Of a DNA stretch of 64,000 nucleotides, positions 53,420 through 55,211 are shown piece after piece. Each line of letters starts with the position of its first letter. Positions within the stretch are counted from its first letter, which is position 1. The stretch is from Rubripirellula sp. GTDB taxonomy: Bacteria; Planctomycetota; Planctomycetia; Pirellulales; Pirellulaceae. The notes beneath the pieces are model-generated. The model saw nothing but the letters and a program-made list of their open reading frames with translations. It was not told the DNA's origin and searched no databases. The stretch spans positions 7,680,001 through 7,744,000 of the forward strand of contig OZ244207.1 of NCBI GenBank assembly GCA_965216875.1. Reading direction: 5' to 3'. A program made the position numbers and the translations under genes.

Positions 53420-54787
53420 ATGATGCTGGACCAATCGACCATGAACGAACACTTCGTCCGAGGGACTCAGTTTCTCGTGGATGGTCGAGCACGTGAGGCG
53501 GTTGTCTGTCTTGAATTGGCCGCTGCCGATCAGCCTGACGATTTCGCGACACTTTACAACTTGGTCGTTGCTTTCAGCGCGGTGGGTCTCCGCAAACGTG
53601 CGCTAGAAGCTTGCCCACGCATGATCGCGACTGCACCATGGAATGGACGGGCGTGTCTGCTATACGCCAATGTACTCGCCTTTAATGAACGCTACGAAGA
53701 TTCCAACGCCTACTTGAAAGCGGCACGCCTGCTCGCGCCAACCGATGCCTTGATCGCAGCTTGCGCGGGACGCGCTCGATTGGTCGCGGGGGATCTTTCG
53801 GGAATCGATGTGCTTGAACCGATGCTTGCCAGCGACAGATGCTCGCTGCCTGAAGTTTCGATGTCGGCGGTGGTGGGGGAAGTTTTGGAGGCGGAAGGCT
53901 ACCGGGGAACACCAGTCGAGTCACGAAGGTCGCTTTGCGCGGAACCCTACATCCTTAGTTGCCAAGGTGTTTCGAAAGAAGTCAGCAAATCGAAACGAAC
54001 TCAAGTCGCCGCAACAGGTTGCGTCGAAATCTCAGTGGCAGCTGCGGCCGAGAAGATCGCGAACGCCAGGTCCATCGTCGCGATCACTGGCGCTGGCCTT
54101 TCTGCGCCCAGTGGATTGCGGACGCGCAAAGACCTTTGGAATCAATTTGACCGTGACGAAGCCGTCTCGGTTTGGCGAGCACGCGAGAATCCGGCTTTCC
54201 TTTGGAACGTGATTCGCGAATTCTTGGGCACGGCAGAGCACCGGCCCAACCCCGGACACGACGCTCTAGCGAAATTGCCGAACTTGATCGGGGTTGTGAC
54301 TCAAAACATCGACAGACTACATGACGTTGCTGCGGAAAATGCAAAGGCAAGCCATTCAATTGTTGAGCTTCACGGTTCCTTTCTCTCGACGAGTTGTTGG
54401 GAGTGTGGCAAGCCATCACGTTCCTGTTTCGCTTGGGTGAAGCAAACGCAAAACCGGGTCCCAACCTGTCGTGATTGCGGTGGAGCGTTACGTCCCGATG
54501 TCGTCCTGTTCGGCGAGCCGGTTTTGCGAGAGCGGCTCGAGGCTGCGAAGAGACTTGTCAAACAAGCAGATTTGGTTTTGGTGATCGGATGTGCGATGGA
54601 CGTAATGCCGGCATCGGAGTTGCCCAACATCGCAGCGTTGCATGGTGCCCCGGTCATTGAATTCAAACGCAGTGCGAGCCGACTAGGTAAGCGAATGAAA
54701 ACTCACCTGGTACGCGGGTGTGCTTCCGTGACCCTGCCAGAGTTGATCCAGAAACTGGCGAAAGAGCGAACATCCAATGAAGCGTGA
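53420..54787 (+). CDS. TPR-fused Sir2/CobB-type NAD-dependent deacylase (sirtuin)
   Basis: N-terminal TPR helices; TGAGLSAPSG, PNPGH, TQNIDRLH, ELHGS, CWEC/CRDC Zn ribbon, LRPDVVLFGE; AGGAG RBS. Confidence 0.88.
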   Translation: MMLDQSTMNEHFVRGTQFLVDGRAREAVVCLELAAADQPDDFATLYNLVVAFSAVGLRKRALEACPRMIATAPWNGRACLLYANVLAFNERYEDSNAYLKAARLLAPTDALIAACAGRARLVAGDLSGIDVLEPMLASDRCSLPEVSMSAVVGEVLEAEGYRGTPVESRRSLCAEPYILSCQGVSKEVSKSKRTQVAATGCVEISVAAAAEKIANARSIVAITGAGLSAPSGLRTRKDLWNQFDRDEAVSVWRARENPAFLWNVIREFLGTAEHRPNPGHDALAKLPNLIGVVTQNIDRLHDVAAENAKASHSIVELHGSFLSTSCWECGKPSRSCFAWVKQTQNRVPTCRDCGGALRPDVVLFGEPVLRERLEAAKRLVKQADLVLVIGCAMDVMPASELPNIAALHGAPVIEFKRSASRLGKRMKTHLVRGCASVTLPELIQKLAKERTSNEA

Positions 54788-55211
54788 ACCGGAATATGTT
54801 CGTGTGCCCGATGAGAGAGTCTTTGCAGAGGATCCACCGATGTTCTGTGCCGCCAACCAGGAAAAGGGGGTCGGCGACTTGGTGTTTGCAGGTGAAGATT
54901 GTTGCGAGCTCGAGCTTGCAAAGTGTGTTGTTCCAATACCCGCAACCGTTTCTGGAGTGATAACGAAAGTGATGGTTGCCGACGAAACGCCACTTGAACT
55001 CGGTCAAGCGATCTACGAAGTGATTCCTTTGGACGGGGTCAGCGATTTTCTCGACGCGGCGAAACGGATTCTGGTGCACCGGTTTTCAGACGCCGAGGCC
55101 ATTTTTGATGAACTGCTCGAACGCGTTCACCCCGAGCACCTCGAAGCAAGTTTGAAAGTCCTGGCCGAAGGGACGCCCGAGCAGATCATCCTGCAACTCG
55201 CAAAGGGCTGA
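54777..55211 (+). CDS. Stand-alone biotinyl/lipoyl-domain protein with helical C-terminal domain
   Basis: VGDLVFAGEDCCELELAKCVVPIPATVSGVITKVMVADETPLELGQAIYEV matches the E2 lipoyl-domain pattern with Lys retained; 11-bp overlap with the sirtuin. Confidence 0.75.
   Translation: MKREPEYVRVPDERVFAEDPPMFCAANQEKGVGDLVFAGEDCCELELAKCVVPIPATVSGVITKVMVADETPLELGQAIYEVIPLDGVSDFLDAAKRILVHRFSDAEAIFDELLERVHPEHLEASLKVLAEGTPEQIILQLAKG

Follow-up and report, generated by a model that had tools for sequence, protein, structure and literature searches.

The locus described here lies in a stretch of 64,000 nucleotides from a planctomycete of the genus Rubripirellula (contig OZ244207.1, positions 7,680,001 to 7,744,000), which is referred to below as the window and whose own numbering is used throughout. 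It comprises two overlapping genes on the forward strand; the first encodes a sirtuin preceded by a tetratricopeptide repeat (TPR) region, and the second a small protein with a carrier domain of the lipoyl type. Here we report the domain composition of the two proteins, the recurrence of their association in other organisms and the distribution of the sirtuin clade, and we discuss how the two proteins might act together. The features of the locus are listed below with the evidence for each (ORF, open reading frame; E, expectation value; pLDDT, predicted local distance difference test).

53420..54787, forward strand: TPR-SIR2 gene, 455 residues, belonging to the 'TRK-loop' clade of sirtuins (ORF; Pfam SIR2, E 1.3e-31; relatives; tree)
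53447..53824, forward strand: TPR region at the N-terminus, spanning about residues 10-135 with some three to four repeats, boundaries approximate (TPR_19; MamA-type model)
54032..54769, forward strand: sirtuin catalytic domain with zinc ribbon, residues 205-450 (alignment to Af2-Sir2, PDB 1ma3, E 7e-34; 37-member alignment)
54760..54787, forward strand: gene junction, with a Shine-Dalgarno-like GAAAGAG at 54760-54766 and then the 11-nt overlap ATGAAGCGTGA at 54777-54787 (read directly from the sequence)
54777..55211, forward strand: small lipoyl-type carrier gene, 144 residues (ORF; Biotin_lipoyl, E 5.2e-9; six full-length homologues)
54792..55028, forward strand: lipoyl-type beta-sandwich, residues 6-84 (AlphaFold, pLDDT 85.6; Foldseek matches to E2 lipoyl domains, E 3e-5 to 1e-3)
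54921..54923, forward strand: codon for K49, the lysine at which acylation (lipoylation) is predicted (invariant; aligned in 20 of 20 supported domains)
55029..55208, forward strand: C-terminal four-helix tail, residues 85-144 (AlphaFold helices 89-142; conserved only in planctomycete-type small proteins)

The two genes are tightly interlocked. Their junction reads ...AATGAAGCGTGA..., in which the ATG of the small gene occupies 54777-54779 and the TGA of the sirtuin gene 54785-54787, and the GAAAGAG stretch lies 10 nt 5' of that ATG. This arrangement, an overlap together with a Shine-Dalgarno-like stretch, suggests that the translation of both genes is coupled. The sirtuin itself may start later than listed, at the Met of codon 8, because a 99%-identical protein, P0002, is 448 residues long. 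A preliminary description of this DNA, made from its letters alone, had reported a sirtuin gene that overlaps a 144-residue lipoyl gene by 11 bp, and both ORFs and their junction were found again at the same positions.

A deacylase-type sirtuin with an altered NAD site

The Pfam SIR2 match spans residues 224-397 of the larger protein. Among the NCBIfam models the protein is closest to those of the CobB-type deacylases (NF040867, 185.2 bits against a cut-off of 243; PRK00481, 182.6 against 320), yet it stays below every NCBIfam CobB cut-off. The nearest solved relatives of the catalytic domain are deacylases as well, namely the Sir2 proteins Af2 and Af1, PfSir2A, SIRT5, Sir2Tm and CobB. When 37 family members are aligned the catalytic motifs prove invariant, comprising T223, then G224, G226 and S228 (GAGxS), Q295 and N296 (QNxD) and the catalytic HG formed by H318 and G319. 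The zinc cysteines C329, C350 and C353 are likewise invariant and C326 is nearly so (CxxC...CxxC), and the LFGE motif (L363-F364-G365-E366), of which we take FGE to be the peptide-binding loop, is kept in every member.

A further set of invariant positions, T235, R236, K237, L239, W240, G390 and A392, lies in or near motifs in which the family departs from other sirtuins. The HMMER alignment to Af2-Sir2 places GIPTFRGEDGLW opposite GLRT---RKDLW, which amounts to a deletion of the three residues FRG; GTS is replaced by GCA, and K416 aligns to an Asn of Af2 and forms with R417 a Lys-Arg pair that is nearly invariant. The altered positions, that is the FRG loop, GTS and the Asn, are presumably those that contact nicotinamide adenine dinucleotide (NAD) in sirtuins. 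Judged by its motifs the protein is a deacylase-type member of the SIR2 superfamily (PF02146), with the catalytic motifs, the zinc ribbon and FGE all present and the canonical GIPxFR(G), GTS and Asn absent. The preliminary description had read the retention of QNID, the catalytic HG and the zinc ribbon correctly, and the deviations that it had pointed out at the NAD site (GLRTRK, GCA, K) are real and family-wide, by alignment both to Af2-Sir2 and to the 37 members.

The repeat region upstream of the catalytic domain is less sharply defined. Its TPR_19 match is weak (Pfam; residues 59-114, E 0.005, below cut-off), a MamA-type TPR model from NCBIfam covers residues 14-110 with an E of 3.6e-7, and relatives of the protein give clear TPR matches. 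Conservation in this region, taken over the same 37 members, is limited to structural Gly and Ala positions.

A carrier domain that retains its acceptor lysine

In the small protein, Biotin_lipoyl (PF00364) matches residues 29-81 with 36.2 bits against a cut-off of 22.1; the GCV_H model reaches an E of 0.096 only. The AlphaFold model consists of strands within residues 6-84 followed by the four helices, and its best Foldseek matches in the PDB are E2 lipoyl domains (those of ODO2 and of human E2) and then biotin carboxyl carrier proteins (BCCPs), the helical tail being unmatched. An exhaustive HMMER search of 1.84 billion representatives returned the six full-length homologues, which are 140-189 residues long and 32-48% identical to the window protein, and beyond them only lipoyl domains of larger proteins. 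A word-indexed search matched the protein to itself only, and the ESM Atlas yielded generic stand-alone lipoyl proteins only (0.90-0.91).

K49, placed at the hairpin tip as is usual for the acceptor lysine of such domains, lies in the context ...DCCELELAKCV... and is invariant in the seven-member small-protein family. The same column is filled by lysine in all 20 supported lipoyl domains that are tied to the clade (MAFFT alignment, P0076 excluded). The residue before it is mostly Asp, giving E-[TAG]-D-K-V. Nannocystis has Ser there, and proteins of the planctomycete type, whose lysine is often flanked by Cys, have Ala, Leu, Glu, Gly or Val.

What follows the lipoyl domain differs from one relative to the next. 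The planctomycete type has a helical tail of 58 residues, with A95, I98, L99, R102, F103, I137 and L141 conserved in the small-protein family; five myxobacterial forms share a conserved tail of 220-280 residues, Nannocystis has a different one of about 200 residues, and the fusion proteins P0035 and P0041 have none. Pfam gave no credible match to any of these tails (E up to 5), and the AlphaFold model of the myxobacterial tail reached a pLDDT of 62.4. By eye the Nannocystis tail could be taken for a degenerate E2 catalytic domain, a possibility for which Pfam gave no support. At one related locus, L108, the gene after the TPR-SIR2 gene carries a lipoyl domain (E 6e-16) and then the start of a Rossmann domain (L108:4714-5160), at which point the contig ends; this part matches FAD_oxidored above cut-off (E 1.4e-7) and Pyr_redox_2 with an E of 3.1e-5, and the gene may encode a chimera of the lipoyl-E3 type tied to the sirtuin. 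Since the tails vary, the helical tail of the window protein falls outside the conserved core, which consists of the TPR region, the SIR2 domain and a lipoyl domain with its lysine.

These results bear on three statements of the preliminary description. The N-terminal lipoyl/biotinyl domain is borne out by the Pfam match, by the beta-sandwich model and by the E2 matches of Foldseek. The acceptor lysine is indeed retained, but the Cys-rich context in which it was described is confined to the planctomycete proteins, most others reading E-[TAG]-D-K-V. The small helical domain is modelled as four helices, but it is one of at least four tails and does not belong to the core.

Recurrent association of the two domains

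Thirteen loci of the clade could be inspected in their DNA context: the window, nine of 80 loci from species genomes (all from Myxococcota), two of 80 metagenome loci and one locus from a scan of the phylum. In nine of the 13 a lipoyl domain is either fused to the sirtuin or adjacent to it, and the position of the domain was as follows.

Lipoyl domain fused to the sirtuin: L030, L032 and L036 (3 loci)
Lipoyl domain in the next gene downstream: window, L033, L034 (TPR-SIR2 ORF at 7164-8777), L108 and L188 (5 loci)
Lipoyl domain in an ORF that ends just upstream of the TPR-SIR2 gene: L031 (1 locus)
No lipoyl domain found: L028, L029, L035 and L109 (4 loci)

The protein collections point the same way. 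A C-terminal Biotin_lipoyl domain is present in four of the 44 family proteins P0003-P0046, namely P0017, P0029, P0035 and P0041 (Pfam E 1e-10 to 6e-18), and P0047 has an N-terminal one that Pfam detects below its cut-off (E 0.0018) and a profile built without P0047 at an E of 6.6e-8. Five metagenomic proteins are thus fused, at either terminus. The sirtuin and the lipoyl domain of the fusions are joined by a short proline-rich segment of the LPPLP type, which resembles the linkers of the E2 swinging arms. A remnant of the pairing may be preserved in P0124 (189 residues). Its residues 1-68 match residues 1-68 of the window sirtuin (44% identity, E 1e-13) and run directly into a small lipoyl protein, as though a deletion across an adjacent sirtuin-carrier pair in another organism had taken away most of the sirtuin gene. 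P0076 was also considered as a lipoyl-linked case and was dropped, its N-terminus being matched neither by a lipoyl profile built without it nor by Pfam.

In a quick tree of the catalytic domains the lipoyl-linked members are spread over several subclades. Because these belong to one strongly supported clade, the association appears to be old within it rather than the product of a single recent fusion, and the lipoyl link looks ancestral to the clade. The pairing of sirtuin and lipoyl domain is not a matter of chance. The preliminary description had proposed to look for recurrence of the pair in other gene neighbourhoods, and such pairs, fused or adjacent, do recur: they are present in Myxococcota, in another planctomycete and in metagenomic sequences. 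Prediction of a complex between the window sirtuin and the small protein scored 0.63, 0.62 and 0.65; an unrelated partner, used as one control, reached 0.48, and the prediction speaks neither for nor against binding.

The TRK-loop clade and its distribution

A search of 5.8 billion proteins with the window sirtuin returned about 45 full-length relatives with 35-47% identity, all composed of TPR and SIR2 regions, followed by a long list of generic sirtuins of about 250 residues. The quick maximum-likelihood tree, built with IQ-TREE, covers 74 catalytic domains; ten generic proteins in which a motif search located no catalytic domain and the proteins of L034, L035, L109 and L188 were left out. 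Fifty-five of its 74 rows form a clade with a support of 100 in the Shimodaira-Hasegawa-like approximate likelihood ratio test (SH-aLRT). It includes all 53 TRK-loop sequences together with P0047, which reads GLRTRMDLW, and P0007, and a stem of 2.12 substitutions per site sets it apart from generic CobB-like and phage sirtuins. The window sirtuin lies inside this clade, grouped with P0004 (SH-aLRT 96), and displays all of its defining features, which are the TPR N-terminus, the SGLxTRKxLW loop, the GCAMDV motif and the replacement of Asn by Lys. P0076 groups with the clade on a very long branch.

The clade is known from Myxococcota, Planctomycetota and metagenomes, and it is rare and patchy. 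In 60 related genomes no full-length orthologue of either window protein was found, and a scan of 400 genomes sampled evenly over the phylum gave as its single related match an N-terminally truncated copy, in genome G273. Among 401 genomes of the phylum Myxococcota, only the Nannocystis genome itself has a full-length member; in each of the two phyla the clade thus accounts for 1 of 401 sampled genomes. In the two genomes of the same genus, synteny with the window runs through the PSD1 and DUF1501 genes at 73-75% identity and stops at about 50,750, and beyond this break neither of them has a counterpart of the pair. The sparse distribution and the break in synteny indicate that the module is a rare accessory trait carried in a variable region. 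The metagenome scan and most of the genome scan were dominated by generic CobB proteins, which were drawn in by the pattern RPDVVLFGE.

Several loci of the clade show individual peculiarities. P0044 is a member of 669 residues in which about 230 residues without a Pfam match follow the SIR2 domain, at the place where others have the lipoyl domain. In a Myxococcaceae metagenome-assembled genome (L035:6046-7096) the TPR and SIR2 parts lie in different frames, so that the gene is either a pseudogene with a frameshift or has been misassembled. Upstream of the Nannocystis gene a protein-arginine deiminase is encoded (L033:4134-6884; PAD, E 1.6e-96), and upstream of an Archangium gene there is an ORF with a Tox-REase-2 domain (L029:3-776); the neighbours are otherwise inconsistent between loci. 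A scan of viral contigs based on P0076 gave no locus, and one based on the family alignment gave 12 ordinary phage sirtuins of about 230 residues (L199-L210), which have no lipoyl domain and fall outside the clade. Ten of the 11 viral ORFs that were read (L201 excluded) have a G-I-x-T-Y-R-[DG] loop, and that of L200 is a canonical GLPDFRS.

Proposed function and alternative explanations

Sirtuins act on N-epsilon-acyl-lysines. Two of them, CobB and SrtN, strip lipoyl groups from the lipoyl domains of E2 proteins and of GcvH (PMC5596343). The clade unites a peptide-directed sirtuin with a domain in which only the acceptor lysine is universally kept, and its fusions hold the two together by a proline-rich tether; for these reasons we favour the reading in which the sirtuin acts on the acylated lysine of its own dedicated arm, and we give this reading an even chance of being correct. 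What we infer beyond the domains and motifs themselves, namely that the lysine is modified, by which acyl group, that the sirtuin acts on it and to what physiological end, would take the following form. The two genes would constitute a self-contained sirtuin/carrier module, with the small protein as its swinging-arm domain. K49 would probably be acylated by the general machinery of the cell, most likely with lipoate or octanoate, and the TPR-sirtuin would be an NAD-dependent enzyme directed at protein lysines, with modified K49 as its cognate substrate. Removal of the acyl group would produce O-acyl-ADP-ribose and nicotinamide and would reset the arm, while the TPR region would probably serve as a scaffold that either holds the carrier or builds an oligomer.

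The genome of the window, G000, has the means to load such an arm. It contains five clear lipoyl or biotinyl domains, which belong to the window carrier, to two proteins of E2 size (frames of 463 and 467 residues), to one of BCCP size and to a protein of 624 residues. LipA, two enzymes of the LplA/LipB type and a ligase of the BirA type are all encoded away from the pair, and with them a writer for the carrier lysine is available. A single other SIR2 match was found in this genome, a weaker and partial one (78.6 bits; it lies in a frame of 357 residues and covers positions 1-152 of a model 180 positions long).

A number of observations weigh against the favoured reading. Three NAD-contact motifs are changed in the window sirtuin, so that ordinary NAD-dependent deacylation is not to be assumed. 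In the planctomycete subfamily, to which the window carrier belongs, the lysine is not preceded by Asp and has Cys neighbours, so that it may bear a different acyl group or none at all. At four of the 13 loci a lipoyl domain is missing from the neighbourhood; two of these, L028 and L029, are both from Archangium, L035 is the frame-split gene, and L109 is a contig of 1.8 kb that offers only about 1 kb of downstream sequence. The count of linked genes covers these 13 loci, the neighbours being out of sight for most metagenomic proteins of the family. A dedicated ligase was found at none of the loci scanned, and what a cell would gain from encoding a substrate alongside the enzyme that erases its mark is hard to see.

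Several of the same features can be read differently. The arm might be a sensor, whose lipoyl group is reduced or acylated by E1 and E3 enzymes according to the NADH/NAD and acyl-CoA state of the cell, and whose own state switches a sirtuin that acts on other proteins. Such a device would resemble the pyruvate dehydrogenase (PDH) kinases, which read the L2 domain of E2. The invariant lysine and the variable tails suit a sensor as well as a substrate, and the oxidoreductase-like start behind the L108 lipoyl domain, with its likeness to FAD/NAD(P) disulphide oxidoreductases, is the sole hint of the redox signalling or lipoate handling that the preliminary description had entertained; that tail, however, occurs in just one of 13 loci, and neither an E1 nor an E3 gene was found near the window pair or in the other scanned loci. 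Lipoyl domains bound to PDH kinase (PDB 2q8i, 3crk and 1y8n) are among the Foldseek matches of the carrier, which show the same fold only, and nothing points to other substrates of the sirtuin. We regard a sensor as unlikely, although it is the least unlikely of the alternatives. About as unlikely as a sensor is a version in which the clade forms a functional class of sirtuin that is new, with its private arm obligate in the catalytic cycle. The octanoyl or lipoyl transferases of the cell could possibly load the arm, whose load would then be turned into an O-acyl-ADP-ribose signal or metabolite, or else the dithiol state of the arm would gate the enzyme. The remodelled pocket, with FRG deleted, GCA for GTS and K416-R417 in place of Asn, at a position that we take to hold the adenosine ribose, may change the use of the cofactor, for example to NADP.

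Two further proposals borrow more directly from characterised enzymes. For ADP-ribosylation of the carrier in dependence on its lipoylation, in the manner in which SirTM modifies GcvH-L, there is the precedent of a sirtuin dedicated to a lipoyl carrier encoded in its own operon (PMC4518038), and the FRG deletion and the changes of GTS to GCA and of Asn to Lys could shift the chemistry. Yet the catalytic HG is invariant here, where class M has QG, and exchange of Gln for His abolished the activity of SirTM (PMC4518038); a macrodomain eraser occurs at none of the loci scanned, and the catalytic domain is nearest to deacylases, all of which makes this chemistry improbable. Improbable to a higher degree is the idea that the lipoyl domain is an address tag, by which the sirtuin docks onto 2-oxoacid dehydrogenase or glycine-cleavage complexes in order to remove their lipoyl or acetyl marks. 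CobB does bind and delipoylate components of PDH and of ketoglutarate dehydrogenase (KDH) (PMC5596343), G000 does have its two E2-sized lipoyl proteins, and its other SIR2 match is the weaker one; but a tag has no need of the acceptor lysine, which is nevertheless kept in every supported domain, and the module is rare and absent from genomes of the same genus while its supposed targets are universal. Least probable is an anti-phage function in which the SIR2 domain would deplete NAD once the TPR region has detected a phage protein. The preliminary description had considered TPR-triggered defence, and the position of the pair in a species-specific variable region and its sporadic distribution would suit that idea. 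PADLOC-DB 2.0, however, returned no credible match, with no family for any of the three proteins run beside the sirtuin, the small protein included, and, for the sirtuin itself, one SIR2 model at 13.4 bits (E 0.0062) of which no single matched stretch passed. The sirtuin keeps its zinc ribbon and the FGE that binds peptide, the nearest relatives are deacylases, the TPR region is short, the conserved lipoyl lysine would be left unexplained, and the neighbours vary and are neither defence genes nor a defence island; the proposal of defence finds no support.

Genomic surroundings of the pair

The neighbours in the window are typical planctomycete genes: a PSD1-like protein, DUF1501 and DUF1559 proteins, a PLAT-domain protein and a weakly methyltransferase-like ORF. 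Dehydrogenase, carboxylase, LplA or other ligase and macrodomain genes were absent among the ORFs scanned in 48-60 kb (six proteins run through Pfam), in agreement with the earlier remark that no dehydrogenase or carboxylase gene is nearby. A promoter scan found no promoter-like sites around the pair; terminator-like sites numbered 4 against 3.6 expected, and scans of the locus for Rfam families, tRNAs and repeats gave nothing of note.

Downstream, at 55441-56673 on the forward strand, lies a gene for a protein of 410 residues that begins with a hydrophobic stretch and contains a PLAT/LH2 domain (E 7.8e-14). Such domains are uncommon in bacteria; the remaining 260 or so residues of the protein have no family match. 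Upstream, the divergent methyltransferase-like ORF (52358-53452, reverse strand, 364 residues, E 0.007) overlaps the sirtuin start by 33 nt as called. It is not tied to the pair, because its DNA matches elsewhere in the genomes of the same genus (65-68%). Further upstream, 50750-52350 is an ORF-poor segment of about 1.5 kb, located exactly where synteny with the two genomes of the same genus ends, and it contains no Rfam family, tRNA or meaningful repeats.

Comparison with known systems

We found no description in the literature, subscription-only papers being outside the search, of a TPR-sirtuin with a private lipoyl carrier, and a review of bacterial sirtuins (PMC8603916) makes no mention of TPR, tetratricopeptide, lipoyl or fused. 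Apparently, then, a clade sirtuin with a lipoyl carrier of its own is of an undescribed kind, as the preliminary description had supposed on the evidence of the window alone.

The clade has most in common with two groups of characterised sirtuins. With the sirtuin lipoamidases CobB of E. coli, SrtN of B. subtilis and human SIRT4 it shares the zinc ribbon and the catalytic His, and those enzymes act in an NAD-dependent manner on the acyl-lysine of lipoyl domains of the E2 type (PMC5596343). The lipoamidases, in contrast, are stand-alone proteins of about 240-280 residues that act on housekeeping complexes, whereas the clade adds the TPR region, the private lipoyl domain, the altered loop and a separate stem in the tree. 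With the class M operon of Staphylococcus and Streptococcus (SirTM, macrodomain, GcvH-L and LplA2) it shares a sirtuin that is tied to a dedicated carrier outside the dehydrogenases; there the resemblance ends, since class M is marked by QG for HG, by linkage to a macrodomain and by a GcvH-like carrier, GcvH-L, with its own ligase, LplA2 (PMC4518038). The window pair has none of these three marks, the clade having HG and a carrier of the E2/BCCP type. Neither the neighbours of the window pair nor the 12 related loci contain a macrodomain, GcvH-L or LplA in a Pfam scan, and the distinction from the SirTM system that the preliminary description had drawn is thereby upheld.

The carrier has the fold and the lysine position of the E2 lipoyl domains and of Neisseria P64K, a lipoyl-E3 chimera whose lipoyl domain (PDB 1gjx) is among the Foldseek matches. 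Unlike an E2 protein it has no catalytic or subunit-binding domain, it reads LAKC for (T/A)DKA and it ends in a unique helical tail; the parallel with P64K is closest at L108, where the lipoyl domain is followed by a start resembling flavoprotein oxidoreductases. The defence-associated SIR2 systems DSR2, ThsA and SIR2-HerA also combine SIR2 with a repeat region and are sporadic in distribution, but the window sirtuin keeps the zinc ribbon and the deacylase motifs, and to our knowledge those systems include nothing that corresponds to the lipoyl partner.

The rarity and patchiness of the family mean that its physiological reach is probably narrow. Its natural fusions of about 560-580 residues (P0035 and P0041) place an enzyme and its presumed substrate in one chain, and on that account they would offer a convenient system for the structure and kinetics of sirtuin-lipoyl recognition. 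If the arm were a sensor or a cofactor, the clade would represent a new coupling of NAD-dependent protein modification to the state of central metabolism. Crosstalk between sirtuins and lipoyl domains is known from two settings, one in which CobB, SrtN and SIRT4 delipoylate metabolic complexes and another in which class M sirtuins ADP-ribosylate a GcvH-like carrier. The TRK-loop clade would add a third arrangement, in which a sirtuin of the deacylase type, its NAD pocket altered, is tied to an E2-type arm of its own.

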